From Candidatus Heimdallarchaeum aukensis (GTDB taxonomy: Archaea; Asgardarchaeota; Heimdallarchaeia; Heimdallarchaeales; Heimdallarchaeaceae), in NCBI GenBank assembly GCA_021513695.1, contig CP084166.1, positions 1,632,001 through 1,696,000 on the forward strand: 64,000 nucleotides of DNA, given 5' to 3'. The notes beneath the pieces were generated by a model, which did no database searches, was not told the origin of the DNA, and worked only from the letters and a program-made list of their open reading frames with translations. This document shows, one piece after another, positions 43,582-64,000 of this stretch. A program made the position numbers and the translations under genes. The stretch's first letter is position 1. Each line of letters begins with the position of its first letter.

Positions 43582-43599
43582 AAGAAGGACTTTAATAAA

Positions 43600-45042: not shown

Positions 45043-45184
45043 CCTAGTTCATAAAAAGGGATTCTACCTCTCTTTTAAATCTTTGTTTAAACGATAGATT
45101 ACAAATGGATTTTATTGATTTTCAAAACACGCCCAAAAAAACAATAAACTTTAAAATGTCTAATAAAACACCTAATTTAGATTA

Positions 45185-46174: not shown

Positions 46175-46321
46175 TTTCTACAAATTTTTTCTTTTTTTCA
46201 GTTAAAGTCATTTAAATGCTTATAAAGGAACAATACTGAGAAGAATTTTTATGTTAAATCAACTGTATTAAATGGAATAATATATAATTCAAAGAAAAAT
46301 AAGTATAGTAGAAAGAAATAA

Positions 46322-47248: not shown

Positions 47249-47309
47249 AGCTAGAACTGCATTACATCATATATTTAAATCTAAAACAAAATCGTGAGAG
47301 AGTATCAAA

Positions 47310-47759
47310 ATGAAAGAGGACAATAAAGTATTAAACAATAAAAAGGAAATAAAAAATCAAGCGAAAATTGAGAAAACGCAAATAAAAGCTAAATGGGATG
47401 TAATTTTACTTACAGGCTTTTTTTCATCGTTGTTATTTTTTATATTAGATGTAATAATAGTGCTCATTTTCATACTTGGTTTAAAGAGAGATGCAATATT
47501 AACTCTTGTAGCGTTTGAATATGTTTTATTAGGAGAAGTAGCAATTGTTGTAATATGGGGGGCTTGTATAGGAAATATAAAACAATCAGTTGTAATTCAA
47601 AAGGTAAAAGAAAAAATTACAAAGTCTGAAACAATAAACAAATTTACGATTAAAGAAGCTACTTTCAATGCCATTTCATACTATTTTGCTGGGCTATTTC
47701 TATTCATTTATCTGATTGTTCTTCATAAAATATTGCAAATTTTGGTTAAAATTGCATAA
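47310..47759 (+). CDS. small membrane protein (3 TM), unknown
   Basis: 149 aa; Lys-rich N-terminus then hydrophobic helices. Confidence 0.35.
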   Translation: MKEDNKVLNNKKEIKNQAKIEKTQIKAKWDVILLTGFFSSLLFFILDVIIVLIFILGLKRDAILTLVAFEYVLLGEVAIVVIWGACIGNIKQSVVIQKVKEKITKSETINKFTIKEATFNAISYYFAGLFLFIYLIVLHKILQILVKIA

Positions 47760-47923
47760 AAAGTAATAAGTAAAAAACTATGAATTTCAGTTAAAAATTT
47801 AAGAAAAACATGTTTAATTTAAATTTATCTGCTTATAATACCCAAAAAGTTTATTAAGTTTCTGTTGATTCTATAATTGCCTCCATTTATTTACTTTAGA
47901 TGGAAAAAAAGGTGAAATAAAAA

Positions 47924-49844: not shown

Positions 49845-50171
49845 TTATTCTTTGGATTGTTTTTTAGCAAACTCACTTATTGGAAAAATTAGACCGAGTT
49901 CTATTAATAGAGTAAGCATCTTTTTGAAATTAACTACCTTGTAGGTTTTTTTAAGAGAAATTTGCTTTACCATTCTATTCTTAATCAGATAATTCAAACA
50001 TTTTTCTACTGATTCATGATTGATTCCTGTCACTTCAGCTAGTTCATCAAGTGTCATTCCTTCTTCATACATACTGAGTGAAACACCTACAACGCCTAAA
50101 TTTATTCTTTCCATTACTTCAGTTGGTAACATTTCAGAAAGATCTTTTTTTTCTTCAGTTTTTTCATCCAT
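49845..50171 (-). CDS. small winged-HTH DNA-binding protein
   Basis: 108 aa; HTH segment MTLDELAEVTGINHESVEKCLNYLIKNRMV. Confidence 0.4.
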   Translation of the reverse strand: MDEKTEEKKDLSEMLPTEVMERINLGVVGVSLSMYEEGMTLDELAEVTGINHESVEKCLNYLIKNRMVKQISLKKTYKVVNFKKMLTLLIELGLIFPISEFAKKQSKE

Positions 50172-50183
50172 TTTAACTACACC

Positions 50184-50774
50184 TCACTTTTTAGTGAGAA
50201 CTTTTTCAAAATAGGATTCTACGAGATGAGGAGGAATGCCAATATCTTTCAACTGTTTTTTGATTTCAAGCACATTATGCTCTTCTTTTAATTCCTTGTA
50301 TTGGAAAGCTATAAATTCTCCATATTCCCAAGGATAAACTATCCATTTATCTGTTAAAGTAATGTAAAAATCTGGTACAATTACACTATGTTTTTTATAA
50401 TGTAGTGTCGCAGTTTTGATAGATTTTGGCTCTTTTGATTTTATGTGTTCCACTGCAGCCTGAAGACTTTTTCCTGAATCAGCTACGTCATCTACTATCA
50501 ATATTTTTTTATTTTTTACTTCAGCTGTTAGTTCTTGTGTTATAATTGGATTTTCTCTTACTTGTGAAGTATCTCGATAAAATTCTATTTTTATATTAGC
50601 GGTAAATTTATTTCCATAGAAATCAGAAAGCAATCGAGCTGGAATCCACCCACCACGAGCGATACCCACAATGATATCAGGAAATTCGTTAGCATTTATT
50701 AGTTTTTCAAACAAATAGTAACACATGTTGTATGCTTCATCCCAGCTTATTATTTCATACTGCAAAACTAGCAC
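50184..50774 (-). CDS. purine phosphoribosyltransferase (type I PRT, HGPRT/XGPRT-like)
   Basis: 196 aa; PRPP-binding motif ILIVDDVADSGKSL. Confidence 0.65.
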   Translation of the reverse strand: MLVLQYEIISWDEAYNMCYYLFEKLINANEFPDIIVGIARGGWIPARLLSDFYGNKFTANIKIEFYRDTSQVRENPIITQELTAEVKNKKILIVDDVADSGKSLQAAVEHIKSKEPKSIKTATLHYKKHSVIVPDFYITLTDKWIVYPWEYGEFIAFQYKELKEEHNVLEIKKQLKDIGIPPHLVESYFEKVLTKK

Positions 50775-50822
50775 CTCAAGGATATATATCTGTTAAAGCT
50801 AATTTTTAAAAATATTGTTAAA

Positions 50823-50831
50823 GCTGCTACA
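50823..50831. repeat. target-site duplication, left copy (GCTGCTACA)
   Basis: identical 9-mer directly flanks both IS termini. Confidence 0.65.
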
Positions 50832-51593
50832 GGTAGTGTCTAGTTTTCTTCCGACAAAATATTTGTGGGGACTCTAATAGTAAGATATGAAAACACAAAA
50901 ACTATCTACTCTTTTTAAGAGATGCAGAGTCCCCAAAAAAATAATAATAAAAGCGATTTATGAATATATTGGTTCAAAGAATGGTTTGAGGACAGTAGCA
51001 TGGAAGAATGGTTTAACGCATCAAACATTATGGTATTGGGTAAAGAAGTTCAGGCTCTTTAGGGAAAGTTTACATAGAGTTGTAGCAGAGAGAGGGGGAA
51101 TGCCAGAGATTATAGTAGTAGATGAAACAGAGATTAAGACCTCTCAAGGCTCAATGTATATGTGGTTCGCGTTAGATCCTTACAACAAGACTTTACTGGG
51201 TTTTAGTATTACTAAAGGACGGAGTAATCTTGAATGTTTACTAACTTTCCGTTATTGGCTCAAATGTTGGGGTTTTAAGCCCCGTATTGTCGTTACAGAT
51301 GCAGGAGTATGGTATCCTGTCTTACTTCGTCTCGGTATCAAAATCTCCGTTATCAAAGGTGGTTTACGCTCCTATATTGAACGTTTTAATGCTACTCTTA
51401 AGAGTTATCGTTGGTTTCATTCTATTCTCCACTGCACTTGTCCTATCCGTGCCGTCTATGGCTCTACTCATCTTTCTGGTTTTCTTACTCTCTTTATGCT
51501 CCATTATAATTTCGTTCGTCCTCATCAGAGCTTGGGACATCCTCCCCTTAGTTCCTTTTTACCTAGGAGGTGGTATAAAAACTAGACACTACC
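50832..51593 (+). mobile_element. complete IS6-family insertion sequence (762 bp) with 16-bp perfect terminal inverted repeats and a 9-bp target-site duplication
   Basis: IR-L GGTAGTGTCTAGTTTT (50832-50847) is the exact reverse complement of IR-R AAAACTAGACACTACC (51578-51593); direct repeat GCTGCTACA at 50823-50831 and 51594-51602; single transposase ORF inside. Confidence 0.75.
50887..51585 (+). CDS. IS6-family DDE transposase
   Basis: 232 aa; N-terminal HTH; DDE-region blocks with IS6-like spacing (VVDETEIK...YMWFALDP, IVVTDAGVWY, HYNFVRPHQSLG). Confidence 0.7.
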   Translation: MKTQKLSTLFKRCRVPKKIIIKAIYEYIGSKNGLRTVAWKNGLTHQTLWYWVKKFRLFRESLHRVVAERGGMPEIIVVDETEIKTSQGSMYMWFALDPYNKTLLGFSITKGRSNLECLLTFRYWLKCWGFKPRIVVTDAGVWYPVLLRLGIKISVIKGGLRSYIERFNATLKSYRWFHSILHCTCPIRAVYGSTHLSGFLTLFMLHYNFVRPHQSLGHPPLSSFLPRRWYKN

Positions 51594-51602
51594 GCTGCTA
51601 CA
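51594..51602. repeat. target-site duplication, right copy (GCTGCTACA)
   Basis: identical 9-mer directly flanks both IS termini. Confidence 0.65.
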
Positions 51603-51661
51603 ACCCCTTAATATTATAAAAGTATCTTAGAAAAGTATTTAATACGTGAATCTTATCTTTA

Positions 51662-53947
51662 TTGAATAAACTTTTAGGTGATGATTTGTCATTCATAGAA
51701 CATTTGAATTTAACAGAAGATGAAAAAAAGATATATGCGTTTTTACTTAACTTTGGAAATTTGACAGCGATAGAACTAGCTAATTTTGCAGGAAAGAATT
51801 TTCAGACTGTAATAAATGCTTTAAACTCTTTAATTGAAAAAGGAGCAGTTGGTGAAACTAAAGGATATATCAAGAAGTATTTTGCTAGAATCCCATTATC
51901 ATATCTTGGAGAAAAGAGCTCAAATATTTCCAATCAAATCAACGAAAATCTTACTAAGGCCACTTCTTCTCTAACAAATGAAAAAGAAAAGCTCACAGAA
52001 CTTGCAACCAAAACAAAAACTGTGATTTCAGAAGAAATTGAGCGCAAGAAAAAAAGTTTAGATTCACAGATGAATACAAAAAAAGATGAAATACATTCCA
52101 ATATATCAGAAATTAAAGAAGAGGATTCAAACAAAATTGCAGAAATCCGATCTCAAATGGGAGAGGATATCAATTCTTTAAAGGATGAAATTACTTCAGA
52201 ACTTAGAGATAGTACGGGAAAAGCTTTAGAATCAATTTCTACTTCAAAAAAATCAATAGCGGATTCAAAAACAGAACTCATAACAAACTTAGAAAATAAT
52301 TCAGCAAAAATTATTGAGGAAACTGCAACTTCAGTCAAGACAAAAAGTGATGATATAAATAATGCAGTATCTAATCTTCAACCAAAATTAGAAGAATTGA
52401 AAGCTACCTATGTAAAAGAATTTGATGAAATTAGCAATATCACAAAAACAAACTTTGATCTAGCTAGATTAGATCTAAAGGAATTTAATGATAAACAAGC
52501 AACAAAAACTATTGATTATTCTCAAAACATAACAACAGAATTAGGTAAAACTCTAGACAATGCAACAGTGACAGTAAAAAGCCATTTAGATACGCTCAAT
52601 AATAACTTGGAAAATTTGTTAAATACCAAGACTGAGGAAATGGTACTGAAAATTAAAGAAACCTTAGCATCCTTGAGCAATGAAATCGAAGCAATAAAAG
52701 GTGATCTTGTAGCAGAGATGGTACAACAAAAAAGTGCTGTTTTAGCATCTACATTACTGAAAATAAAAGATGAGCTAGCCATCAAATTCACAGAGTTCTC
52801 AAACGAAGAACAACGAAGGAAACAGGAATTTATGAGTGAGAAAGATATTTTTTCACAAAAATTAGATGCCTATTATAATGAGACTATAGATGAATTTACC
52901 AAGAAAATTGAAGAAATAAAAACTAACGCTGAACAGAAAGTCAGCAGCATTAATTCAAAAGCTTTGGCTGAATTTACTTCACTCTCTGAACAGATAGTGT
53001 CGATCTTGTCTGAACACCAAGAAACTTTTAGTAAGAAAATAAACGACATTAAAAGCACAATTAGTGAAGAATTAGAAAAAAATGCTAATGTAAACAATGA
53101 AACGTTATCTAACATTGAGAATATGCTTAAAGCCATTATTGAAACCAACTCAACAAAAATAGAAGACTTATACGAAAAAACAAAAACAACTATAGAAACA
53201 CAAACAAAGATAATTCAGGAAGCAATTTTAAGCACAGTTGACAAAATAGTCAATGACACATTGGAAACAGCAAAAGCATTAGTTTCCATTTCAAAAGGCG
53301 AGATCGATAAAACAAAGAATTTCATCGAAGAGATGATAGAAAAGGAAATAGAAAACAGTTTTGGAATAATGGAAGAGACACATTCAAATCTCGAAAATCT
53401 AGCTAAAGAACTGATGAGTGTTTCTGTGAAGCTTGGTGAAGATTTTCAAACTTTAGAAGCAAAAACAACAGCAGTTAAAGAACCGGAAATAAATACAACT
53501 GCGATTATAGGTGTTGATGCAGTTGAAGAACACATAAAAGAGATATTGAAAAATGTACAAAGAAAGGGGACATTATTTGTACCAACAAAAAGGTCTGTTC
53601 CAGTAGAAGTCTTAAAAGCATTAAAAGGAACTGTGCAAATTACAGTAGTTACTAAAATTGACGAGGAGATGGACAAAGAGTGGATAAATGATTTGCTGAA
53701 TAATACACAAGCAAACATCATGATCAGAACAATACGAGAAGGAGGATTAGGTGGAGGAATGGGAACAGATATGCCTGTAATCTATGCTGTAGAGAGAGAC
53801 AGTTCTGAGGTGCTAGTAGCAATTGAAGATGAAACTACTAAAGAAGTAGTTGGGATACTATCAAACTCTACCGAATTTGCAAAAGTCCTATCATACACCA
53901 TACTTAGCAATTACTTAAGCGGAGCAGCTTCCAGACAAATAAGGTAA
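51662..53947 (+). CDS. TrmB-family winged-HTH N-terminal domain fused to a very long (~500 aa) coiled-coil region and a globular C-terminal domain
   Basis: 761 aa; TTG start in track (no in-frame ATG for ~140 codons); N-terminus DEKKIYAFLLNFGNLTAIELANFAGKNFQTVINALNSLIEKGAV matches the TrmB HTH; residues ~100-620 are E/K/T/N-rich heptad-like low complexity. Confidence 0.5.
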   Translation: MNKLLGDDLSFIEHLNLTEDEKKIYAFLLNFGNLTAIELANFAGKNFQTVINALNSLIEKGAVGETKGYIKKYFARIPLSYLGEKSSNISNQINENLTKATSSLTNEKEKLTELATKTKTVISEEIERKKKSLDSQMNTKKDEIHSNISEIKEEDSNKIAEIRSQMGEDINSLKDEITSELRDSTGKALESISTSKKSIADSKTELITNLENNSAKIIEETATSVKTKSDDINNAVSNLQPKLEELKATYVKEFDEISNITKTNFDLARLDLKEFNDKQATKTIDYSQNITTELGKTLDNATVTVKSHLDTLNNNLENLLNTKTEEMVLKIKETLASLSNEIEAIKGDLVAEMVQQKSAVLASTLLKIKDELAIKFTEFSNEEQRRKQEFMSEKDIFSQKLDAYYNETIDEFTKKIEEIKTNAEQKVSSINSKALAEFTSLSEQIVSILSEHQETFSKKINDIKSTISEELEKNANVNNETLSNIENMLKAIIETNSTKIEDLYEKTKTTIETQTKIIQEAILSTVDKIVNDTLETAKALVSISKGEIDKTKNFIEEMIEKEIENSFGIMEETHSNLENLAKELMSVSVKLGEDFQTLEAKTTAVKEPEINTTAIIGVDAVEEHIKEILKNVQRKGTLFVPTKRSVPVEVLKALKGTVQITVVTKIDEEMDKEWINDLLNNTQANIMIRTIREGGLGGGMGTDMPVIYAVERDSSEVLVAIEDETTKEVVGILSNSTEFAKVLSYTILSNYLSGAASRQIR

Positions 53948-54076
53948 AAAACCCTTTTTTTTATTCTTTTTTCGCAAAAAATGCTAATTTCAAGGTATGA
54001 ATCACAGTTAGGTTTTTAGCGTAAAGATTATAAGCGAAAACAATTTTCCCTAGTTAACAACAAAGGTGAATAAAAA

Positions 54077-54253
54077 ATGCCAACAGTAGTAGATGAATCA
54101 TGTTGTGTAGGCTGTGGAGCTTGTGTAGATGTCTGCCCAGAGAACGTTTACGACCTTATAAATGACATTGCTGTTCCTGTTCGTAAAGAAGATTGCACAG
54201 ACTGCGGCCTATGTATTGACGAATGTCCTTCAGAATGTATTGATTTTGAATAA
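54077..54253 (+). CDS. 2x[4Fe-4S] ferredoxin (58 aa), not in the ORF track
   Basis: my own translation: MPTVVDESCCVGCGACVDVCPENVYDLINDIAVPVRKEDCTDCGLCIDECPSECIDFE; two CxxCxxCxxxCP motifs. Confidence 0.6.
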   Translation: MPTVVDESCCVGCGACVDVCPENVYDLINDIAVPVRKEDCTDCGLCIDECPSECIDFE

Positions 54254-54336
54254 AGCAATATCTTTGCTTTTTCTTTTTGTTTTTAAATGCTATTTTCTAA
54301 ATTTTTAATTCGCACAGAAAAAAGAGATATTAAGTT

Positions 54337-54846
54337 TTAACCAAATTTTTTGTCACATCTCCCTCTATATTTACAATCCAAGCAAAATTCTCTTTCCCAA
54401 ATTCTTTGAAAAAAGTCTACTAACTTCCATATTTCCAAATAGTCCTCAATAATCACACCAATTTCCCAATTTCTTGCTGTGTCCTCAACTTTTCCCATTC
54501 CTGTTCCAGTCAAGTTTCCAGAGCCTACATATGCTTTTTTCCCATCAACAATAAACACCTTTCCATGGCTTCTTGGACAATGAAAAATTAGGGAGGGATC
54601 ATACTGTTCTATTTTCTTAACTAAAGTTGATTGTGTTGAATCCTTTCCGCTAATAATTCTTAAATCAATATCCTTACTCAATGCGATCAAAACTTCAGAG
54701 ATACGATATGTTTTTTTTGAAATAATTTGTACTCTAAAATCACTGGATACCCCTGTCATTATCCACAGACTTTCTTTTGCTTTAAACGCTACTTTACGTA
54801 AAAACTCGTCATAAATTTCTTTATTTACTATTACAGAGTTAGACAT
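54337..54846 (-). CDS. phospholipase-D-superfamily (HKD) nuclease, Nuc-like single-domain
   Basis: 169 aa; single HKD motif HGKVFIVDGKKAYVGSGNLT (H-x-K-x4-D-x6-GSxN). Confidence 0.6.
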   Translation of the reverse strand: MSNSVIVNKEIYDEFLRKVAFKAKESLWIMTGVSSDFRVQIISKKTYRISEVLIALSKDIDLRIISGKDSTQSTLVKKIEQYDPSLIFHCPRSHGKVFIVDGKKAYVGSGNLTGTGMGKVEDTARNWEIGVIIEDYLEIWKLVDFFQRIWEREFCLDCKYRGRCDKKFG

Positions 54847-54947
54847 TAATTACCTCATTGGCTTTAGTTTTTTAAACTCTGCTAAAAAAAGTCTAGTTAT
54901 TAAATGTTTTATTAAACCTTAAATACTGAAACCACAGTTGTTGAATA

Positions 54948-57938
54948 ATGGAAAATATCGAAGCTGTGTGTATCAAAATTCTCTCTCAAAAGGGAGGAGA
55001 AAATCCCCTCACTTCATTATTAGTTGAAATAAACAAAATTCAATATGTTCTTAATCTTTGGACTCCTTGGAATGAAATTGGTGATTACATTCAACCTTAT
55101 ACCAAGATACGTGCTTTTAACGTTGACAAGATAAAAAATAGTGACTCGATCTACTATTCTGCCGGAAAAAAGGCCATAGTTGTCGTAGATCCAGATATTC
55201 TAATTAATGCGTCTACAATTGGAAATATTTCCTATTGCCCAAGAAGTTATTACATCAGTGAAAAAATGGGAGATACTCTTTCTCCTTTATCTGCAATTAA
55301 AGGAACAATTGTTCATGTAGCTTTGAGTACAGCTATCGCTTCTGGAAACTCTCCCACGGAAGTATTATCTGATGTTATTGATTACTATTCAATCCAATTC
55401 GAGCAACTAGGTTACTCTCGAGAAAATATTGAAACAGAAGTCTACAAAATGGTTGAAGCACTAGATCAATTTATTAAAACTCTTCCCACAGAAACAATTC
55501 CCGAGTCACTCTTTTTCTCACCTTACTTAGGAATCAGAGGAAGAATTGATGTACTTGCAGAGCGTATTTACGAACTTAAAACAGCTAAACTTGGTACAGA
55601 TGATGATGCACGATTTTCAGATATGATGCAAGTAACTCTTTATTCTTTTGGTTTAACAGATATGAAGGAAAGTATAGCACAAACAGATGGAACTGTTTTA
55701 TATGTAGGTTCAGAAACTCTTCAACCAAAAGAAGTAAACATTAGTTGGGGAATCTTAAGATATGCTATTCAAATGCGTAATATTGCCTATAGAATCTCTT
55801 TTTTAGATTATATTCCTCCTATTCTTGGCGAAAACCAATCCAGAAAATGCAGTAAATGTTCAGTTCAAGTTATGTGTAGCCTTTTTTGCGCAGGGTTAAA
55901 TCAATTTAGGAATTGTGAAATATGTAATCATTCTCATTTTTGCAGTAAAACAGTTTTATCTGAAAAAGAGCAAGAATATTTCAATAAATATAGTTACTTG
56001 TTGTCTCAGGAAAGGCTAGAAACAAACCGCAATTTAGCTGATTTGTGGAATCTTTCTCTAGAAGAGAGAGTAGAAAAAGGAAAAACTATAGTTAACTTAG
56101 TATTAAAAAATGAAATTTTAGAAAATGGAATAAGGACATTAGTTTTTTCTTGTAACAATCAGTCAGAGATAAGAGAAGGAGATGTTATCATCTTAAGTGA
56201 CGGGGAAGTAATTTCCAATCCAATTAGTACAGGAACTGTGACTAACATTACATCAACATCTATAGAAATAGAAACAAAAGCTCATCCTGAAAAAGTTTCT
56301 GTAATTGATTTGTATTCTATTGATGTGGGATTTAATCGTCAACAAAGAGGATTATTCAACTTTATTTTTAAATCTAATAATTTTAAAGATATAATCTTGG
56401 GGCATAAACCTCCTGTTATAAAAAAAGTCAAAGGAAATTTTGTACCTAACAATTCTTCTCAAAATGAAGCTATCCAAAAGATTCTTGGTACTGAAAATTA
56501 CTTATTGATTCAAGGCCCTGCAGGAACAGGAAAAACACATGTAATTGCCAAATCTGCAATTTTACTCGCTGATAAAAAAGAGAAGGTGCTTTTAACAGCT
56601 TATACAAATCGAGCTGTTGACAACATGTGTAAATATCTATTAGAAAATGGTTATCAAAATTTTGTTAGGTTAGGCTCTACGCATGCCACACAGAGAAAAA
56701 TAAGAAAATACACTTTGTTTTCAATATTGAAGAAAAATAAAAATAAAAAAGTACTCGATCTTCTTGACGAATATCAAATAATTGTTGCCACAACATCCAC
56801 TATTTCTTCACCAGTTTATTCTAATCTTGGAATACAAACAGTAATCGTTGATGAAGCAAGCCAGATGACTGAAACAACTCTGCTTTCTGCTTTAATAGAA
56901 GGTAAGAAATTTATTCTTGTTGGAGACCACAAGCAATTGCCCCCTGTTATTCAAAGTGTGCTGTGTAAAAACGAGGGGTTTGATATTTCATTATTTGAGA
57001 AATTGGCCAAATCTAATCCCCAATTTGTTCATTTACTAACAATCCAATTTAGAATGAATGAGAAAATAATGGAATTTTCAAACAAAAAGTTTTATGAGAA
57101 CAAACTAGAATGTTTTGATAACCTAATTGCACTCCAAAACTTATATGACTTAGGAAATTTCGCAGGAGATTTTCAGCAATTTGAAAATAAGGCTATCTAT
57201 GACCCAAAAATGCCTTTAGTATACGTTCAAGTAAATGGAAAATTCAATCCTGAAAAAAAACTGAATGCTATGGAAGCTGAAATTGTTGCTACAATAGCTA
57301 AAAACTTTTTGAGATTAGGAATAAGCACTGAACAAATTGGAGTTATTGCACCTTATCGAGGGCAAGTAGGTGAAATAAGAAGATATATACCAGGTGTTTC
57401 GGTCGATACTGTAGATAGGTTTCAAGGTTCTGACCGAGAGATTATAATTCTCTCATTAACAGAAACAAATATTCACGGTTTTAAGGGATTTTCAGATGAA
57501 AGAAGACTCAATGTTGCTATTACGCGGGCTAAAAAGAAACTGGTAGTAGTTGGAAACCCAAATCTTACTGAGGGAGAGTTAGGAGAGTACATTAGTTATC
57601 TAAGAGATAATGTAGAAAATGTTCAAGTTAAAGAGATAGAAGAAAGAGAGGAATTGATAGAAAAACAAATAAGAACGGTCATAGTTGCTGATTCCATATC
57701 AAAAGTTGCTTCATTTTTCAAAAAAGTTAAGGCAAAAGGAAAAGAATTATACAAATCAAAAGAAGAAATAAACAAATGTCCAATTTGTTTCCAACAAGTT
57801 TATGAGAATGCTATTCAATGTCCAATTTGTGAAAAACTTTATCATTACACTCACTTAATCCAATGGATTAAAGAAAAAGGAAGATGCCCTTACTGCAAAA
57901 CATCTTTATCTATATATTCTGTCTATGCAGAAGAGTAA
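54948..57938 (+). CDS. Dna2-like nuclease-helicase: N-terminal Cas4/RecB-family PD-(D/E)XK nuclease with 4-Cys Fe-S cluster, SF1B (Dna2/Upf1-like) helicase, C-terminal RING-like zinc finger
   Basis: 996 aa; nuclease motifs with Cys ligands (ISYCPRSYY...RIDVL...YELKT...MQVTLY...CSKCSVQVMC); helicase Walker A GPAGTGKT, motif II VIVDEASQ, motif III LVGDHKQLPP, motif V RFQGSDREIIILS, NVAITRAK; C-terminus CPIC-x10-CPIC-x4-H-x2-H-x10-CPYC. Confidence 0.7.
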   Translation: MENIEAVCIKILSQKGGENPLTSLLVEINKIQYVLNLWTPWNEIGDYIQPYTKIRAFNVDKIKNSDSIYYSAGKKAIVVVDPDILINASTIGNISYCPRSYYISEKMGDTLSPLSAIKGTIVHVALSTAIASGNSPTEVLSDVIDYYSIQFEQLGYSRENIETEVYKMVEALDQFIKTLPTETIPESLFFSPYLGIRGRIDVLAERIYELKTAKLGTDDDARFSDMMQVTLYSFGLTDMKESIAQTDGTVLYVGSETLQPKEVNISWGILRYAIQMRNIAYRISFLDYIPPILGENQSRKCSKCSVQVMCSLFCAGLNQFRNCEICNHSHFCSKTVLSEKEQEYFNKYSYLLSQERLETNRNLADLWNLSLEERVEKGKTIVNLVLKNEILENGIRTLVFSCNNQSEIREGDVIILSDGEVISNPISTGTVTNITSTSIEIETKAHPEKVSVIDLYSIDVGFNRQQRGLFNFIFKSNNFKDIILGHKPPVIKKVKGNFVPNNSSQNEAIQKILGTENYLLIQGPAGTGKTHVIAKSAILLADKKEKVLLTAYTNRAVDNMCKYLLENGYQNFVRLGSTHATQRKIRKYTLFSILKKNKNKKVLDLLDEYQIIVATTSTISSPVYSNLGIQTVIVDEASQMTETTLLSALIEGKKFILVGDHKQLPPVIQSVLCKNEGFDISLFEKLAKSNPQFVHLLTIQFRMNEKIMEFSNKKFYENKLECFDNLIALQNLYDLGNFAGDFQQFENKAIYDPKMPLVYVQVNGKFNPEKKLNAMEAEIVATIAKNFLRLGISTEQIGVIAPYRGQVGEIRRYIPGVSVDTVDRFQGSDREIIILSLTETNIHGFKGFSDERRLNVAITRAKKKLVVVGNPNLTEGELGEYISYLRDNVENVQVKEIEEREELIEKQIRTVIVADSISKVASFFKKVKAKGKELYKSKEEINKCPICFQQVYENAIQCPICEKLYHYTHLIQWIKEKGRCPYCKTSLSIYSVYAEE

Positions 57939-57953
57939 GGCGAAAAAATATAA

Positions 57954-59525
57954 CTAATTAAAAAACTCATCTAGCGATGGTTGTTGCTTTTTATTCTTTT
58001 TTTGTTTCTTCTGCATCTCTTTCACTTTGGATTCCTTACTTTTTTGAGCTGTGGATTCAGTGTTTTTTTCTTTTTTCTTTTTCTTACTTTTTTTAACATT
58101 CAGTTCTTCAGTTTCTTCATCTCGCTTTTCTTCTTCAAAGTGTGAAATTAAAGGTGTTACTTTTGAAGGAGGAGACGAGAGAGTTACTTCTTTTGCAAAA
58201 TCAACATACAATTCATCCATATATTCCAGAATTAACTTTGTTTGTTTAGCATTTTTTTCAGTTAAATAATCGATCTCATCTGCTTCAAGATTCAACCAAG
58301 TAGCTATTCCTGCAGCCATTTTTGCATCATTTTTAAAAATGGATCTCATGTATGGATAAATGTCTTGTTTAAATTGAGAAGAAGAGCAGTGAAATTTTGA
58401 TTTGCTTTTTTTAATGATTGACGTGAGCTTAGCTTCTTTCATTCTTAATCTGCCAATTTTCGCCCAGTAGGAGGGAAAAGTATATCTGACTTGCTTATAG
58501 GGCGAAGTTTTCATTAATCCTACACTAGAAATAAATACAAAAAAATATTTCAGAAAAATCCAATTTTGAGTTAAATATGCTTGAGATAAATAGAAGTCTG
58601 CTTCCGCTATAAGTGAATACATATTATCTAATTCTTTTGGACTTTTAGCTTGCTTATAGCTGTGCTCGTCTACGTAATTTAACAACTCTCTGTAATCTAC
58701 ATCTAAGCCCTCAATAGCTTTTCTTGCTGATTCTAAGCTTTTTGCGTAATAAATTTTTGATAATGCTTGATTTAGTTTTTGTTCTTGATTTCTTTGGGAA
58801 AATTCAAATTTTACATCAACCGATAATGAATCTTTAAGAGCAATACTTTCTAAATCATTCAAAGCTGAACGTGCATCACCTGAGCTGTTTTTTGCGATGT
58901 CCAATAAAACTTCATCATCAATTGTAAGATTCTCTTTTTTAACAATACGCCTTAGTAACTCAATTATTTCATCAATTGTTAAATGATGAAATTCAACAAT
59001 TTTCATGTGCCTTTTTACAGAACTTAACGATTTAGCTTCAACATCATTAGCTGTGGCAATGATGGGAATTTGAGTTCCCTTAATTGCTTTTTCTAAAGCT
59101 TTTCCTCCTCCTCTATCTTGATTTCCAAATAATCCATCAGCTTCATCAACAATGATCATTTTTCTAACTGTTCCACCTTGCAAAACTGTTCCTTCAGTGG
59201 AAGCCTTACCAACAAGTAATTCAACAGCTTTTTTATTTCTTTTATCACTTGCATTGACTTCAATATACTCATAATTATATTTTCTAGCTAAATATAAGGC
59301 TACGCTTGTTTTTCCTACTCCAGCAGGACCAACTAATAAAATAACTTTTTTCTTTTCTTGATTCCAATTTCGTAGCCATCTTTCAATTTCTTTTACTACA
59401 AGCTTATTTCCAACAAAATCATCAAGTACTTTGGGTCTATATTTCTCCACAAATGGTAAATTAAGAGATTCGGAACTCATAAGGCAAAATAGAATAAAAG
59501 TTTTAACTATAAAAAATATTCTCAA
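57954..59525 (-). CDS. rfcL: replication factor C large subunit with Lys-rich tail and C-terminal PIP box
   Basis: 523 aa; Walker A GPAGVGKTS, Walker B/DEAD IIVDEADG, sensor motifs; extreme C-terminus QPSLDEFFN fits QxxLxxFF. Confidence 0.8.
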   Translation of the reverse strand: MRIFFIVKTFILFCLMSSESLNLPFVEKYRPKVLDDFVGNKLVVKEIERWLRNWNQEKKKVILLVGPAGVGKTSVALYLARKYNYEYIEVNASDKRNKKAVELLVGKASTEGTVLQGGTVRKMIIVDEADGLFGNQDRGGGKALEKAIKGTQIPIIATANDVEAKSLSSVKRHMKIVEFHHLTIDEIIELLRRIVKKENLTIDDEVLLDIAKNSSGDARSALNDLESIALKDSLSVDVKFEFSQRNQEQKLNQALSKIYYAKSLESARKAIEGLDVDYRELLNYVDEHSYKQAKSPKELDNMYSLIAEADFYLSQAYLTQNWIFLKYFFVFISSVGLMKTSPYKQVRYTFPSYWAKIGRLRMKEAKLTSIIKKSKSKFHCSSSQFKQDIYPYMRSIFKNDAKMAAGIATWLNLEADEIDYLTEKNAKQTKLILEYMDELYVDFAKEVTLSSPPSKVTPLISHFEEEKRDEETEELNVKKSKKKKKEKNTESTAQKSKESKVKEMQKKQKKNKKQQPSLDEFFN

Positions 59526-59538
59526 GAAGAGAATGGAG

Positions 59539-60222
59539 CTATTCTTTCTTATCTTTTATATCTTTGGTAAACAGCATTTTTCCTAGAATTCCTCCTATTC
59601 CTCCTCCGATAAGACCGATAATTCCTACAAAAATAAATGAACCTATAACTAGGGTAAAAAAAAACATAACAAAAAATAATAGAAAACCTGATATTCCAGC
59701 AATATTCCAATCAAAGGATACAGCCATTATTGAAAAAACAATATCTAGAAAAATAAATGATAAAGTTGCAGAAGTAGAACCAGCTCGTAATCCTCCTCTT
59801 GATACTAGACCTCCAGCGAAGGAGCCAACTAACCATATTCCAAGGATAAGAAAATATAACCCTGCGTTTCCAAATTTATTACCAATAGCAAACGATTGAT
59901 CTATGTTCAATTCAGAAAACATTGGTAAAAAGCCGATAGGTAAATTAAACTTAAACGGAATAAAGAGGTTCACAATTAACAACATTAACAAAATTGTAAA
60001 AAAATGTCCTCCAAAACCATATCTGTCAACTAGATAATCATGAGCTTCAATTAATGGAACAATATCAATTGTAGGCCATAAAATGAACATAATTAATACT
60101 ACTACAAGTGTGCAAGTCACAAAACCAATAAAAGATCTTACTATTCTTCGTCCAAACATCTTGTAAATATTGTCTCTTCTGTTATTTATTTCTTTGCAAA
60201 AAAACGAGAAATTATCTCCCAA
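59539..60222 (-). CDS. polytopic membrane protein with Gly-rich C-terminal helix, unknown
   Basis: 227 aa; 5-6 hydrophobic helices; GLIGGGIGGILG near the C-terminus. Confidence 0.4.
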   Translation of the reverse strand: MGDNFSFFCKEINNRRDNIYKMFGRRIVRSFIGFVTCTLVVVLIMFILWPTIDIVPLIEAHDYLVDRYGFGGHFFTILLMLLIVNLFIPFKFNLPIGFLPMFSELNIDQSFAIGNKFGNAGLYFLILGIWLVGSFAGGLVSRGGLRAGSTSATLSFIFLDIVFSIMAVSFDWNIAGISGFLLFFVMFFFTLVIGSFIFVGIIGLIGGGIGGILGKMLFTKDIKDKKE

Positions 60223-60254
60223 AAATTTTTATCAGTATTAACTTTCTTTTAAGT

Positions 60255-61082
60255 ATGGTTTTAATTGGACAAACATTACAAGCCTATAAAGGTCTAAGTA
60301 CAGAACAACTCTTACTTTTTGTAAAGGCATTAGGTTTTGAATCTTGTGAAATAAATCCAGCAGGAACTTCTTTAAATAATGTAGAAAAAATAATCTCTAA
60401 AGTCGGAAAAATGAAGTTGACCTTTCATCTTCCTATACAAGGAATTGAAGGATATGATTTTTCGCAAGAAGATAAAGCTGACCAAATCAATAATGTTATT
60501 TCCCTCATAAATAACTATGGAGAAAAACTTAACCTTCTTCTAGCTGTTGTTCACCCCCCTGAAGGGAACGGTAATATTGAAGTTTTAGTGAAAAATCTAA
60601 AAAAATTAAATATTCCAATTGTTTTAGAAAATGTTGTATGGTACTCAAATGAGGAGTTTAAAGAAATTTATGAAAAACTTAAGATTGAACTAGGGGATCA
60701 ATTGAAAGGCTGGTTATTTGATGTTGCTCATTCTTATTTGAGAAATGGGAGAAAACATTATTTAGATATTCTAGATTTACTTCCTTTTTCAGAATTAGAA
60801 GAGATACATCTATCAGACTGTTTAGAAGGAGAAGATTCTCACTATGCTTTCGGAGCAGGAATTCTCCCCATTGACGAGATATTAAGAGAAATTAAAGAAA
60901 GAGGGTATAATAAAATTATAGTAAATGAAATTGATGCACACCCTACAATTTGGGACGTAATTGATTCCTACAGAAAAGTGGCTAGAACATTTAAGAAAAA
61001 ATTATATCGAAAGGTCACATTTAGACTAGCGATAACTAAGCCAATAATACAAGCAAAACTAAAGAAAAATAAGATAATTTAA
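60255..61082 (+). CDS. xylose-isomerase-like TIM-barrel protein (sugar-phosphate isomerase/epimerase or AP-endonuclease-2 fold)
   Basis: 275 aa; barrel-end metal-ligand pattern (FHLP, VVHPPEG, VLEN, DVAHSY, EIHLSD). Confidence 0.45.
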   Translation: MVLIGQTLQAYKGLSTEQLLLFVKALGFESCEINPAGTSLNNVEKIISKVGKMKLTFHLPIQGIEGYDFSQEDKADQINNVISLINNYGEKLNLLLAVVHPPEGNGNIEVLVKNLKKLNIPIVLENVVWYSNEEFKEIYEKLKIELGDQLKGWLFDVAHSYLRNGRKHYLDILDLLPFSELEEIHLSDCLEGEDSHYAFGAGILPIDEILREIKERGYNKIIVNEIDAHPTIWDVIDSYRKVARTFKKKLYRKVTFRLAITKPIIQAKLKKNKII

Positions 61083-61096
61083 TTTTTATTTTTTTA

Positions 61097-61354
61097 TTAG
61101 TGTTCAGTTGTTTTTTGAATTATTTTTAGAGAAACATCTATAAGCTTAAGATAAGAGTTCATTGCAGCACGAGCTGAAACACTGTCTTTTGCTTTAATTA
61201 ATAGAAAAAGATCTTTTTTATCTCTATTAATAGAAGCAACAGCCCTATCAGTGACTAGATTTTTTGTTTCAATTTCTAAACTTGACGCAATAATTTTACA
61301 CATATTTTCATCTTCAAAAGATATTTTTGAAGTAAACTCTATCTCATTAATCAT
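61097..61354 (-). CDS. pcc1: KEOPS complex subunit Pcc1-like
   Basis: 85 aa; Pcc1-like beta-alpha pattern (SARAAMNSYLKLIDVSLKII) and its usual place at the end of the exosome superoperon. Confidence 0.45.
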   Translation of the reverse strand: MINEIEFTSKISFEDENMCKIIASSLEIETKNLVTDRAVASINRDKKDLFLLIKAKDSVSARAAMNSYLKLIDVSLKIIQKTTEH

Positions 61355-61365
61355 TTTAGAACCAC

Positions 61366-61944
61366 TTAATTTGCTGTCTCAATCTTTCGTGAAACTATCT
61401 TTATTTTCATTCTGGGTCCAACGGAGTTATTTTCTGAATCTAAAAATTCTATAAAAATTATCCGTTCATCTTTATCTATATAATCAGCATACATTGTTAA
61501 ATAACTATTTCTTTCAAGGTCATCAATATTCTGTTCTGTAATATTAAATATCGTTCTCAATATTCTCTCTTCACTTATATCTATATTGGAGATCAAGATA
61601 AGATTGCTAGGTTGTCTAATTTTTTTTGCATGATAATCACGAGACAAAGTTAGCCCTCTAAGTTTAATTGCAAATGGAAGCTCCTCATGTTCAGAGCTTG
61701 ATAAGTTGAAAACTCTCCAGAAATTTGGATTACCTTTAACTGAATTTATGACAACTGCAACTTCAAATCCTTCAGAATGTAATTTTGTTAAAGTAAAACT
61801 TAAGTTCTGCGTGCCTCTTGTAAATTTTTTAGAGCTTGGGATAACGCTTACAATGTCTTTAAGAAATGTTCTTGTTTTATTTGACGGATCACGTGATGTT
61901 GTAAAAGCTACTTTAGTCATACCTTTGTTAAATAACCTATACAT
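61366..61944 (-). CDS. Brix-domain (Imp4-like) ribosome-biogenesis protein
   Basis: 192 aa; N-terminal VAFTTSRDPSNKTRTFLKDIVSVIPSS matches the archaeal Brix motif; follows L37ae as in the conserved superoperon. Confidence 0.65.
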   Translation of the reverse strand: MYRLFNKGMTKVAFTTSRDPSNKTRTFLKDIVSVIPSSKKFTRGTQNLSFTLTKLHSEGFEVAVVINSVKGNPNFWRVFNLSSSEHEELPFAIKLRGLTLSRDYHAKKIRQPSNLILISNIDISEERILRTIFNITEQNIDDLERNSYLTMYADYIDKDERIIFIEFLDSENNSVGPRMKIKIVSRKIETAN

Positions 61945-61997
61945 AAAAAGATAATGATTTTAGGTAAAAATTGGAAAGTATAAAATAATGAAAAAAT

Positions 61998-62279
61998 TTA
62001 CTCTGAACTTTCTGCGATTCTTGTAATTCTTCTTAAAATACTTCTTCCTGCACTTGTTTGTGGTTCCCAAGCTCCGCCAGCTCTTTTTTCTCCACAAGAG
62101 GTACATACCCAAATTCCTAAACCATCACGCTTAAATGTGCGTTTTAAACACCTAGGGCATTTATATTTTGCTTTACTTCTATTTTCTACTTCTCTTACAC
62201 GTTTTCGAATGGTACTTCCATAACGTGTTCCGAATCGTCCAGTTGAACCAACTTTTTTTGTACGAGCCATAGTAATCAC
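61998..62279 (-). CDS. rpl37ae: 50S ribosomal protein L37Ae
   Basis: 93 aa; CPRC...CTSCG zinc ribbon and RFGTRYG N-terminus. Confidence 0.85.
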   Translation of the reverse strand: MITMARTKKVGSTGRFGTRYGSTIRKRVREVENRSKAKYKCPRCLKRTFKRDGLGIWVCTSCGEKRAGGAWEPQTSAGRSILRRITRIAESSE

Positions 62280-62362
62280 GAAAGTTTTTCTTCTATATCC
62301 TTACTATCAAAAAAAAAAGTGTATTTTTTAACGTTTCGTTATTGAAGATTAAAAAAAGGGAT

Positions 62363-63196
62363 TTAATTTCCCTTCTTCTTAAATTCCTCTATTGCTTTTA
62401 ACAATTCTGCTCGATAGCTCTTTGAAACTTCAAGACATTCTTTAGCTATAGGAACAAGTTCATCAGGTTTTAAGACCCCTATTCCTCCTTTTTGAGCAGA
62501 AACAATGTGTTCTTCTTCATCAAATCCAAAAGTAATTCTGCAATCTGCAATTCTTTCTTCTTTTAATATTGGATCTATGATTCTATGTTTTCCTATTTTA
62601 TAGCTAGTTACAGTTACAGGATAATGATCTAATTCAAGGACCTCTTTTTCGTCAAGGACTTCAGGTTCTCCTTCTTCATTTATTTTTACTTTAGGAATCT
62701 TTGTTGTAGATAATGCAGCTAAGGAAGCCAAGGTTGCAGCATCAATCAGATTCCCGTCAGCATTCAAAACATACATATCAATGAAGAGTATCCAAACATA
62801 TTTTCCTGGTACAATACATAGCTTTGAGAGATCAATACAATGTGATTCTCTAATTGCTCTATCTGTAACTCGTGCTAATTCTATTGCATCGTCTCCTGGA
62901 GGACCAGATTCATAATATGGTGATGCAATAGGTGAAAGTTCTGCACTTGTTGTAATCACTCCAGAGTCTGGAGTATCTGGAAAAGGAGAACCTAGTGTTG
63001 CTTTTACACCAGCAATAATCTTTGTTTCACCTAGAGTTACTATAGCTGAACCTTCTGCTTTTGTTTCAACAAAATTCAACTCAAATTTAATTGGTCTATG
63101 TTCCTGTTTTTCTCTTCCTCCAATTCTCTTTCCTTGATCTAATAACGTTAAAATGTAATCTTTTTCTATTTCTGAAACAACATAATCATCTGACAT
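62363..63196 (-). CDS. rrp42: exosome complex component Rrp42 (RNase PH-like, non-catalytic)
   Basis: 277 aa; RNase PH fold blocks; immediately downstream of Rrp41 with a 2-nt gap. Confidence 0.8.
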   Translation of the reverse strand: MSDDYVVSEIEKDYILTLLDQGKRIGGREKQEHRPIKFELNFVETKAEGSAIVTLGETKIIAGVKATLGSPFPDTPDSGVITTSAELSPIASPYYESGPPGDDAIELARVTDRAIRESHCIDLSKLCIVPGKYVWILFIDMYVLNADGNLIDAATLASLAALSTTKIPKVKINEEGEPEVLDEKEVLELDHYPVTVTSYKIGKHRIIDPILKEERIADCRITFGFDEEEHIVSAQKGGIGVLKPDELVPIAKECLEVSKSYRAELLKAIEEFKKKGN

Positions 63197-63198
63197 TT

Positions 63199-64000
63199 TT
63201 ATTCCTCCAAGTCATTTATTTCTTCATGCTCTGTTTCATCGTCCTCTGATTCAGTGGTATTAGTAGTTGTAGTATCATCATTTTCTTCAGGTTTTTCAGT
63301 TCCTAGACTGTTTAGTTCCTTTTCTAATTCTTTTTCATCTTCATCTAGCTCTTCATTCAGTTCTTCGGCTATGTCACTAACTAAATCTTGATGCTCATCA
63401 GTTTCAACTTCAGAGACTTCTTCAACTTCAGAGACTTCTTCAACTTCAGAGACTTCTTCAACTTCAGAGACTTCCTCAATTTCTATGGTTGTTTTTTCAC
63501 CAGTCTTCTTTTCTTCAGTTTCTTCAGACGCAACAGCTTCATCAATAGCTGTTTCATCAACTGAAGCTTCGCTTTCAGCTAAAGATTGGCTTACAATTTC
63601 CATGGTATCCTCTTCTTCTGCTTCTTCCTCTTCTGGTTCTCCAGCAAATTCTGCTCTAATTTGAGCATATTTTTCTCTTAAAGCTTCCTTCTGAATTTCA
63701 TATATTTGCTTAGCACCTTCAATTGCTAGTTTTACTGCTTCTTCAAATTGCTCAATTGTAAAAACTCCATCTAATTGCAAGAGAGAGATTTCGTCCAATG
63801 TTGCAGAATATCCAATTGGGATATCGCCAGAGCCTTTTTGATCTTCAATATCATGAAGATCCAATACTACTGTGTCATTTACCAACCCAGCTGCGACCCC
63901 TGAAATTATTCCTCGCATGGGGATACCAGCATCAGCCAAAGCTGTGCATGCGGCAGTTAAGCTTGCACACCTTGTTCCACCATCTGCTTGTAAAACTTGA
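63199..64000 (-). CDS. rrp41: exosome complex exonuclease Rrp41 (partial; N-terminus beyond window end) with an unusual ~170-aa acidic C-terminal extension
   Basis: frame open to the window edge; translation at the edge reads QVLQADGGTRCASLTAACTALADAGIPMRG (RNase PH catalytic-subunit signature); the track's M at 63939 is internal; tail is E/D-rich with (EVSEVE)n. Confidence 0.8.
   Translation of the reverse strand, partial: QVLQADGGTRCASLTAACTALADAGIPMRGIISGVAAGLVNDTVVLDLHDIEDQKGSGDIPIGYSATLDEISLLQLDGVFTIEQFEEAVKLAIEGAKQIYEIQKEALREKYAQIRAEFAGEPEEEEAEEEDTMEIVSQSLAESEASVDETAIDEAVASEETEEKKTGEKTTIEIEEVSEVEEVSEVEEVSEVEEVSEVETDEHQDLVSDIAEELNEELDEDEKELEKELNSLGTEKPEENDDTTTTNTTESEDDETEHEEINDLEE
63405..63484. 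repeat. 18-bp tandem repeat (caacttcagagacttctt x ~4.3) inside the Rrp41 tail coding region, encoding (EVSEVE)n
   Basis: read directly from sequence. Confidence 0.7.

Follow-up and report, generated by a model that had tools for sequence, protein, structure and literature searches.

The archaea now known to stand nearest to eukaryotes belong to the class Heimdallarchaeia, and the use of ubiquitin as a signal at replication forks and at breaks in DNA is viewed as a trait of eukaryotes. In Rad5/HLTF/SHPRH and Rad18, E3 ligases of eukaryotic DNA-damage tolerance, a DNA motor or a module that binds single-stranded DNA (ssDNA) is combined with a RING domain in one protein, which brings ubiquitin to stalled forks. 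Among the superfamily 1B (SF1B) helicases, Upf1 interacts with Upf2 through its CH domain, and IGHMBP2 has an AN1 finger. Here we describe a gene of Candidatus Heimdallarchaeum aukensis whose 996-residue product is very probably the Dna2 orthologue of Heimdallarchaeia and which ends in what we are confident is a RING-H2-like zinc finger. The gene lies in a stretch of 64,000 nucleotides (assembly GCA_021513695.1, contig CP084166.1, positions 1,632,001 to 1,696,000), referred to below as the window, and all coordinates are those of the window unless a locus is named. The domain order of mouse DNA2, that is, an oligonucleotide/oligosaccharide-binding (OB) fold, an Fe-S nuclease, a barrel and the helicase domains 1A and 2A, was solved by Zhou et al. 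(eLife 2015, PMC4716839). A ubiquitin cascade of Helarchaeia consisting of an E1, an E2 and a RING E3 has been found to be active biochemically, and genes for ubiquitin and for ubiquitin E2 variant (UEV) proteins were reported in Heimdallarchaeia (bioRxiv 10.1101/2023.07.25.550441). A further system of relevance is Mokosh, in which a COG1112 Upf1-like helicase is combined with a phospholipase D (PLD) nuclease (10.1101/2022.05.11.491447).

The nuclease, Fe-S, helicase and C-terminal motifs that a first-pass annotation of the window had listed were checked residue by residue and all were confirmed. The nuclease has the Fe-S ligands C97 and C301-x2-C304-x5-C310 and the catalytic residues D201, E209-x-K211 and Q228-x3-Y232, and the helicase motifs are GPAGTGKT (residue 523), TNRAVDN (553), DEASQ (635), GDHKQLPP (659), VDRFQG (822) and RRLNVAITRAK (852). 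The catalytic and Fe-S residues (C97, C301, C304, C310, D201, E209, K211, Q228 and Y232) are invariant in an alignment of 24 orthologs, the members of which share 53-60% identity. The Pfam model for Dna2 (PF08696) matched residues 59-179 with 49.1 bits (cut-off 22.4), PDDEXK_1 scored 29.5 bits, and both AAA_11 and AAA_12 were well over their cut-offs. When a profile of the 24 orthologs was searched against the PDB, the top match was mouse DNA2 (5EAN, 5EAW, 5EAX) with 285 bits over residues 189-877; in the same search Upf1, IGHMBP2 and Sen1 scored in the range of 160-193 bits (193 bits for Upf1/IGHMBP2), over the helicase part alone.

Structure models were made for the two ends of the protein separately, residues 1-489 and the C-terminal segment. 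The AlphaFold2 (AF2) model of residues 1-489 contains an OB fold with a predicted local distance difference test (pLDDT) score of ~84-94, the nuclease core and a beta-barrel, with pLDDT values below 50 in the Cys-rich parts of the nuclease (residues 83-112 and 289-367). A Foldseek search with this model returned mouse Dna2 (5EAN) with an E-value of 1.5e-18, the runner-up being AdnAB (1.7e-4), with IGHMBP2 at 2.4e-4. The Dna2 architecture named in the first-pass annotation is borne out by PF08696 and by mouse Dna2 being the best solved relative, and the assignment as Dna2, a sequence- and model-based one, rests on the Pfam model, the 285-bit match to DNA2, the predicted fold match to 5EAN and the invariant residues.

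Directly behind the canonical Fe-S motif there is an extra set of Cys and His residues, C314 and C323-x2-C326-x-H328-x3-C332, that is likewise invariant in the 24 orthologs and which may represent a second metal site. The overall pattern, CxxCx5Cx3C...CxxCx5C, resembles the arrangement of a two-cluster ferredoxin. AF2 confidence is low across this second set. The seven-Cys pattern also occurs in homologs from the other RING-bearing clade (see below), Bathyarchaeota (P0053) and Sericytochromatia (P0056, L044), and among the homologs compared, the Dna2 proteins of haloarchaea, Hod-type members and eukaryotes do not have it. It is feasible that the second Cys cluster, together with the conserved adjoining ferredoxin, could add redox sensing.

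At its C-terminus the protein has the ligand pattern C944-x2-C947-x10-C958-x2-C961-x4-H966-x2-H969-x10-C980-x2-C983. All eight ligands, together with W973 and P981, are invariant in the 24 orthologs and K984 is nearly so, and since the orthologs have only 53-60% identity we consider this pattern to be beyond chance; the option that the module is lineage-specific noise absent from orthologs, which had been entertained in the first-pass annotation, does not hold. The Pfam family zf-RING_2 (cut-off 27.3 bits) scored 24.5 bits in the full-length protein and 30.1 bits when the C-terminal 91 residues were searched alone, and it matched 24/24 orthologs at E<=0.01 (best E=8.4e-9), while prokaryotic RING families gave weak matches in few of the 24. 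A profile of the C-terminal segment found the RING-H2 domains of Arkadia, Hrd1/synoviolin, AMFR/gp78, RNF165 and RNF126 with E-values of 1e-7 to 1e-6. The finger was modeled by AF2 with pLDDT values of 84-90, and the Foldseek matches listed for it are RING/U-box E3 domains or complexes with them (TRIM37, Prp19, RNF165, Hrd1, EL5, Rbx2, Rad18, TRAF6), several of which superimpose with a root-mean-square deviation (rmsd) of 1.1-1.5 Å across 46-50 alignment columns. Paired zinc ribbons (Pfam DZR, matched by 14/24 members) were rejected for the module because zf-RING_2 matched all 24 members and the fold matches are to RING/U-box E3 domains or complexes with them. The C-terminal module very probably has a RING fold of RING-H2-like type, and the profile searches and fold matches support what had been proposed for it in the first-pass annotation. 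In the linker that precedes the finger, A914 and A921 are invariant, and the AF2 model of the C-terminal segment has a strand at its residues 2-9 and a helix at 14-25, followed by a low-confidence stretch.

Alignment of the finger to Arkadia identified where the two differ: the His that is ligand 4 of Arkadia is missing and a Cys three residues before ligand 3 is present instead, giving a CxxC knuckle, and His takes the place of Cys as ligand 6. The Trp of the finger (W973) aligns with the Trp of Arkadia. Across 57 distinct RING sequences, the residue at C1+2 is hydrophobic (I, L, V or F) in 57/57, Trp is present at ligand 6+4 in 52/57, Pro at C7+1 in 52/57, and Lys or Arg at C8+1 in 49/57. 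With the structures of c-Cbl, RNF4 and BIRC7 in mind, we take the hydrophobic C1+2 residue, the Trp and the Pro to be E2-contact positions and the basic residue after C8 to occupy the linchpin position. In the aukensis finger the putative E2-contact residues are I946, W973 and P981, and the residue at the linchpin position is K984.

The distribution of the RING-bearing protein was examined in two ways. In a scan with two peptide patterns, for which each GTDB species was represented by a single genome and the best 80 loci were kept, ~29 Heimdallarchaeaceae loci had 53-93% identity to the aukensis protein and matched it through residue 990, and Kari- and Hod-type loci with 32-34% identity had the same C-terminal pattern (29-34% for the Kari/Hod-type loci with the module overall). 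A HMMER search of 1.84 billion representatives was also performed and the best 150 relatives inspected: the RING motif occurred in 17 clusters (50% identity) and was missing from the other ~130 relatives, which include Dna2 proteins of haloarchaea, Bathyarchaeota, Sericytochromatia and other bacteria as well as eukaryote-type ones. In the first-pass annotation the finger was said not to be a described feature of Dna2, and no other Dna2 among these 150 relatives has it. Named members of the RING clusters are Heimdallarchaeota or Kariarchaeaceae, plus one Hodarchaeota locus, with names being sparse in the second RING clade. Two loci, L036 and L065, have the depositor label Thorarchaeota; L036 has 58% identity to the proteins of Heimdallarchaeaceae, and we suspect a binning or labeling issue in its case.

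In a neighbor-joining tree of 85 Dna2-like proteins, the RING-bearing sequences fell into two clusters with very short deep branches between them. The eukaryote-like sequences were set apart from all prokaryotic ones, and this crude tree showed no special affinity of the Heimdall proteins to those of eukaryotes. Each of the two divergent RING-Dna2 clusters (P0050/P0198 and P0232) has Kariarchaeaceae-labeled members, so that some Heimdallarchaeia may have two paralogous lineages of RING-Dna2. Judged from the sequences examined, the RING finger is fixed across Heimdallarchaeia and occurs only there. We found no description of a Dna2-RING fusion in Asgard archaea in the open-access literature searched. 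What is new at this locus is the fixed RING fusion; the Dna2 part, the PLD protein, the ferredoxin and the large subunit of replication factor C (RFC-L) are of kinds already known.

The coordinates of the features of the locus are collected in Table 1. The window has a G+C content of ~32%. The four open reading frames (ORFs) of the first-pass annotation are all present where it had placed them, and its identification of the PLD protein (PLDc_2), the ferredoxin (Fer4 and CxxCxxCxxxCP motifs) and RFC-L (NF003229) was right. The RFC-L and Dna2 genes are convergent, with 15 bp between their stop codons. The mechanical ORF for RFC-L has a TTG start and a hydrophobic 15-residue leader, and as the family alignment begins near residue 22 the true start is likely M16 at 59480. 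At the other end of RFC-L, behind a long Lys/Glu-rich tail, the C-terminus QPSLDEFFN represents a motif like the PCNA-interacting peptide (PIP) box. Two further proteins of the window were noted. The first, of 761 residues (51662-53947), has an N-terminal TrmB-type helix-turn-helix (HTH) domain followed by a very long coiled coil; its matches to Apolipoprotein and ZorA are spurious, and it is kept in the syntenic block described below at 31-39% identity (85% in H. endolithica). The second is encoded by an ORF (63199-63939) upstream of a Rrp42-like gene and ends in a long acidic tail that contains tandem EVSEVE repeats.

Table 1. Positions in the window, strand and supporting evidence for the features of the RING-Dna2 locus.
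Feature	Position	Strand	Evidence
2x[4Fe-4S] ferredoxin, 58 aa	54077-54253	+	Pfam Fer4 families; two CxxCxxCxxxCP motifs
Single-HKD PLD-family protein, 169 aa	54337-54846	-	PLDc_2 E=9.5e-11; H94-x-K96-x4-D101-x6-GSGN
PLD/Dna2 divergent intergenic region, AT-rich, 101 bp	54847-54947	.	Sequence
Dna2-type nuclease-helicase with C-terminal RING, 996 aa	54948-57938	+	ORF; Pfam Dna2, PDDEXK_1, AAA_11, AAA_12, zf-RING_2
N-terminal OB-fold domain, aa 1-81	54948-55190	+	AF2 model aa 1-489; Foldseek: Dna2 N-terminal part, SSB/RPA OB folds
PD-(D/E)XK (RecB/Cas4-type) Fe-S nuclease domain	55200-55952	+	Pfam Dna2, PDDEXK_1; Foldseek 5EAN E=1.5e-18
Extra Cys/His set, putative second metal (Fe-S or Zn) site, aa 314-332	55887-55943	+	Invariant in 24 orthologs
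Beta-barrel (stalk/1B-like), aa ~380-455	56085-56312	+	AF2 strands; within mouse Dna2 alignment
SF1B helicase core (1A/2A), aa ~495-880	56430-57587	+	Pfam AAA_11, AAA_12; motifs; PDB sequence search
Linker, aa 881-941: conserved strand-helix element, then variable basic stretch	57588-57770	+	Alignment; AF2
RING-H2-like zinc finger, aa 942-987	57771-57908	+	Invariant ligands; zf-RING_2; AF2/Foldseek
RFC large subunit (RFC-L)	57954-59525	-	NF003229 323 bits, cut-off 280

Gene order was compared between four orthologous loci on long contigs and the GTDB loci. A block consisting of a gene for a small winged helix-turn-helix (wHTH) protein (s108), a phosphoribosyltransferase (PRTase) gene, the TrmB-HTH coiled-coil gene, the ferredoxin gene, a slot of variable content and the Dna2 gene is conserved in ~25 species. 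One flank of the block contains RFC-L, a protein with an AP-endonuclease-2 fold, Pcc1, L37ae and exosome subunits, and the other contains a substrate-binding protein (SBP)/ABC transporter, EutA and gamma-glutamyltranspeptidase (GGT). The window has the GGT, EutA, ABC and SBP genes upstream (41.9-49.7 kb) and RFC-L downstream, with the block reversed against its flanks: an inverted segment of ~8 kb (49845-57938, from the small wHTH gene to Dna2) lies between the flanks at 41947-49690 and 57954-64000, and the arrangement in H. endolithica (L008) is as in the window. Within the block, between the PRTase and TrmB-like genes, there is an rve-family transposase gene (50887-51585). RFC-L is at most ~6 kb from Dna2 throughout the family. 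As the block here runs in the reverse direction to its flanks, unlike in the other Heimdallarchaeaceae, the convergence of Dna2 and RFC-L, which the first-pass annotation had read as a functional arrangement, is by this comparison the result of an inversion specific to the aukensis/endolithica lineage and is not operon-like.

The slot between the ferredoxin and Dna2 genes contains the PLD gene in ~4, a longin-like gene in 10 and no gene in 11 of the ~25 Heimdallarchaeaceae loci. The copies of the PLD gene are those of the window, of H. endolithica (93% identity) and of two other lineages known from metagenome-assembled genomes (66% and 48%). The alternative occupant encodes an unrelated, well-conserved protein of ~158 residues with a weak longin match (Fuz_longin_1, E=0.002); it is found in L017, L019-L021, L029, L030 and L033 (at ~5340-6000) and in a shorter form in L001 and L034. 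The eleven empty slots measure 106-295 bp. The PLD family has 3 clusters in a database of 5.8 billion proteins, and no PLD gene was found near RING-Dna2 in the Hod-type loci and three other-clade loci examined. It may be that the PLD gene is an ancestral neighbor kept in a few deep lineages, and the protein is probably outside the function of Dna2, as a lineage-restricted neighbor. The PLD protein of the window has four Cys residues, C90, C155, C158 and C164 (54355-54579), in a C...CxxCx5C pattern with the spacing of the Fe-S staple of Cas4/Dna2, and these are kept in the three other slot copies (H. endolithica and the two MAG lineages); a metal site in a single-HKD PLD protein would be unusual.

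The stand-alone ferredoxin noted in the first-pass annotation just upstream of the nuclease-helicase is a constant member of the block, being found immediately before Dna2, or before the slot gene where there is one, in the ~25 Heimdallarchaeaceae loci with 76-100% identity, whatever the content of the slot. It was not found beside RING-Dna2 in the loci examined from other clades. Its adjacency may reflect function, such as supply or sensing for the Fe-S nuclease, or it may be inherited gene order. The neighbors of RING-Dna2 in the other RING clade (three loci) are GatDE, ribosomal proteins, CTP synthase and NurA/HerA, and the Hod-type loci have a conserved YdjM-like membrane protein upstream of RING-Dna2. 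Directly 3' of the Hod-type RING-Dna2 genes, and overlapping or abutting them, are genes for a TaqI/Eco57I-type N6-adenine methyltransferase with a TaqI_C domain (L038 5684-7516, L040 8832-10595, L065 9203-10648), and in L040 two more DNA methylase genes (N6_N4_Mtase and DUF1156-like) lie beyond. It is feasible that the pair of RING-Dna2 and methyltransferase could have a restriction-like role in the Hod-type lineage. No partner gene of RING-Dna2 is conserved at the class level; the RING alone is.

In the first-pass annotation the nuclease-helicase and the PLD protein had been proposed as a possible defense module, a housekeeping Dna2 and an immunity system had been held to be inseparable from the sequence alone, and a comparison of gene neighborhoods had been suggested in which a core position would favor Dna2 and an island position defense. 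The comparison placed the locus in a core position, and it is synteny that separates the two readings in favor of housekeeping: since the locus occupies a conserved syntenic core position and not a variable island, and the PLD gene adjoins the helicase in only ~4/25 of the family loci, we consider RING-Dna2 likely to be a housekeeping rather than a defense protein. A joint role of the helicase-nuclease and the divergent PLD gene in defense against viruses or plasmids, on the pattern of Mokosh, DISARM or Nhi, would be consistent with a PADLOC match to MkoA (226 bits on residues 605-880), with the matches of the PLD protein to DrmC (E=3e-11) and MkoB (3.7e-5), with the persistence of the PLD gene next to Dna2 (48-66% identity) in three deep lineages of Heimdallarchaeaceae, and with the N6 methyltransferase (TaqI/Eco57I-type) directly after RING-Dna2 in the Hod-type loci. 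Mokosh systems have the PLD nuclease as a separate or fused partner of the helicase and occupy variable defense islands, and type I MkoA includes a Ser/Thr kinase domain. Here, however, the MkoA match is to the generic SF1B core and no kinase domain was found by Pfam, the NCBIfam model PLuB_AAA (NF040671) scored 263 bits against a cut-off of 999, and the NCBIfam DrmC model scored 24.7 bits on the PLD protein against a cut-off of 133, with the HKD region alone matching. Of the other DISARM components, neither DrmA, DrmB (DUF1998 helicase) nor a methylase was found in the neighborhood in the window (ORF list, Pfam). The PLD gene is absent from ~21/25 family loci and from the loci examined in the other RING-Dna2 clades, the locus is flanked by replication, exosome and ribosomal genes, as befits the core, and the nuclease half fits Dna2 far better than any defense nuclease. 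The Mokosh, DISARM, PLuB and Nhi readings were rejected on the basis of synteny and of these sub-threshold or core-only profile matches, making a defense module very improbable; a PLD gene beside a helicase is by itself no evidence of a Mokosh- or DISARM-like defense system. We also rejected, and give next to no credence to, the reading of the protein as an RNA-surveillance helicase of the Upf1/IGHMBP2 type, with the zinc module in the role of the Upf1 CH domain. The helicase part does score 310 bits with NCBIfam TIGR00376, although this is under the cut-off of 348.9, and Upf1, IGHMBP2 and Sen1 are strong PDB matches on the helicase core, but these matches are confined to the helicase, and the half of the protein with the OB fold, nuclease and barrel fits Dna2 alone (1.5e-18 for Dna2 vs. 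2.4e-4 for IGHMBP2 as the fold of the N-terminal half). The higher profile score of DNA2 over Upf1 (285 vs. 193 bits) and the above-cut-off Pfam Dna2 model point the same way.

Overall, we think that the data are best explained by a housekeeping Dna2 with an E2-recruiting RING of its own, a reading in which we have moderate confidence. Recruitment of an E2 charged with ubiquitin is favored because the fold and nearest relatives of the finger are those of active RING-H2 ligases, because the E2-contact signature is under selection, and because an Asgard E1-E2-RING E3 cascade works in vitro. Fold, nearest relatives, contact signature and cascade together suggest E3 activity of the RING; taken by itself, an E3 or E2-recruiting function is a tentative assignment that we would place slightly short of even. 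The main rival, which we judge unlikely, is a Dna2 in which the RING is a non-catalytic zinc adaptor that transfers no ubiquitin and tethers Dna2 to DNA or to a partner such as RPA, PCNA, the clamp loader or another Dna2 protomer. Such a role would suit the non-canonical C2-C2-H2-C2 ligands with a CxxC knuckle replacing C-x-H, the retention of the finger in Hod-type members without the Pro and the Lys/Arg, as if the fold outweighed the E2 surface, and the fact that other SF1B helicases, Upf1 and IGHMBP2, both of them PDB relatives of this protein, bind proteins via RING-like zinc modules. It is, however, hard to reconcile a generic adaptor with E2-contact positions and a linchpin Lys/Arg that are conserved in 49-57 of the 57 sequences, and the closest sequence and fold relatives of the finger are active RING-H2 E3 ligases, with an Asgard RING E3 cascade functional in vitro. 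Several points weigh against a housekeeping Dna2 with an E2-recruiting RING. The finger's ligand pattern is C2-C2-H2-C2 and not the canonical C3H2C3, its Foldseek E-values are weak (1e-2) for what is a small domain, the cross-brace pairing of its ligands rests on predicted fold matches, and, as Hod-type members are without the Pro and Lys/Arg, the E2-binding signature is not universal. One locus per Heimdall assembly was present among the best 80 loci kept in the GTDB scan, yet the genome may encode another, more divergent Dna2-like protein at a different site. The adjacency of the ferredoxin and the retention of the PLD gene in three deep lineages could also signal a functional link.

By homology to mouse Dna2, we envisage that the free end of ssDNA would be threaded through the Fe-S-stabilized PD-(D/E)XK nuclease, with the SF1B motor running 5'-to-3', an activity that would suit the trimming of long flaps, the resection of breaks and the processing of stalled forks. 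We take the PLD protein, ferredoxin and RFC-L to be neighbors, not subunits. If E2 recruitment is correct, the RING, a putative double-zinc finger on a linker of ~60 residues, would hold an E2 that has been loaded with ubiquitin by the Asgard system, so that Dna2 engaged on a DNA end could ubiquitylate itself or neighboring replication and repair proteins. One polypeptide would then unite the translocase-plus-RING combination of Rad5/HLTF with the ssDNA-targeted RING function of Rad18. In its most specific form, RING-Dna2 would be a ubiquitin ligase activated by DNA ends, which threads and cuts a 5' ssDNA end and ubiquitylates itself or partners such as RPA, PCNA or the clamp loader, a proposal we regard as possible but rather doubtful.

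The presence in Heimdallarchaeia of a core replication/repair nuclease-helicase with a conserved eukaryote-type RING and an E2-binding signature suggests a link between ubiquitin-style signaling and DNA-end processing that is directly testable in archaea. An active RING would make the protein the first E3 ligase of archaea with a direct tie to DNA metabolism and would offer a substrate system for Asgard ubiquitylation, and an inactive one would still serve to mark the clade and would represent a new regulatory appendage of Dna2. Should RING-Dna2 prove to be a ligase activated by DNA ends, ubiquitin control of fork and break processing would already have existed in Heimdallarchaeia, with eukaryotes later splitting the activity into separate E3 ligases (Rad18, Rad5/HLTF).

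Compared with known systems, the protein shares with eukaryotic Dna2 the order of OB fold, PD-(D/E)XK nuclease with C...CxxCx5C ligands, beta-barrel and SF1B domains 1A and 2A, with ~17% identity to mouse Dna2 in the structural alignment of the N-terminal half. Eukaryotic Dna2 differs in having neither a RING nor the second Cys cluster, and the archaeal protein is without the long eukaryotic N-terminal extension. The prokaryotic Dna2-like proteins (Haloferax/haloarchaea, Bathyarchaeota, Sericytochromatia and other bacteria) are collinear with it over residues ~9-877 at 26-33% identity, but they stop just past helicase motif VI and none has a RING. The Mokosh (MkoA/MkoB, MkoC) and DISARM (DrmC) systems resemble the locus in that an Upf1-like SF1 helicase adjoins a PLD-family nuclease, and are unlike it in that here the helicase has no co-conserved PLD partner and no kinase domain, is encoded at a core position and has a nuclease half of the Dna2 type.

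For the finger, the closest relatives in sequence and fold are the RING-H2 E3 ligases Arkadia/RNF111, RNF165/Ark2C, Hrd1/synoviolin, AMFR/gp78, RNF126 and EL5, with which it has in common a hydrophobic C1+2 residue, a Trp following ligand 6, a Pro following C7 and a basic residue following C8; the Dna2 finger differs from them in its C-x2-C/C-x2-C/H-x2-H/C-x2-C ligands and in its fusion to a nuclease-helicase. The RING of Rad18 (2Y43) is among the fold matches of the finger, with an rmsd of 1.5 Å. Rad5/HLTF/SHPRH and Rad18 are, however, non-homologous to the archaeal protein outside the RING, without a nuclease and with an SNF2 rather than an SF1B motor. The RING E3 of Helarchaeia is a eukaryote-type RING E3 that works with an Asgard E1, E2 and ubiquitin (bioRxiv 10.1101/2023.07.25.550441), and it differs from the RING of Dna2 in being a small stand-alone protein encoded in gene clusters of ubiquitin and the endosomal sorting complex required for transport (ESCRT).

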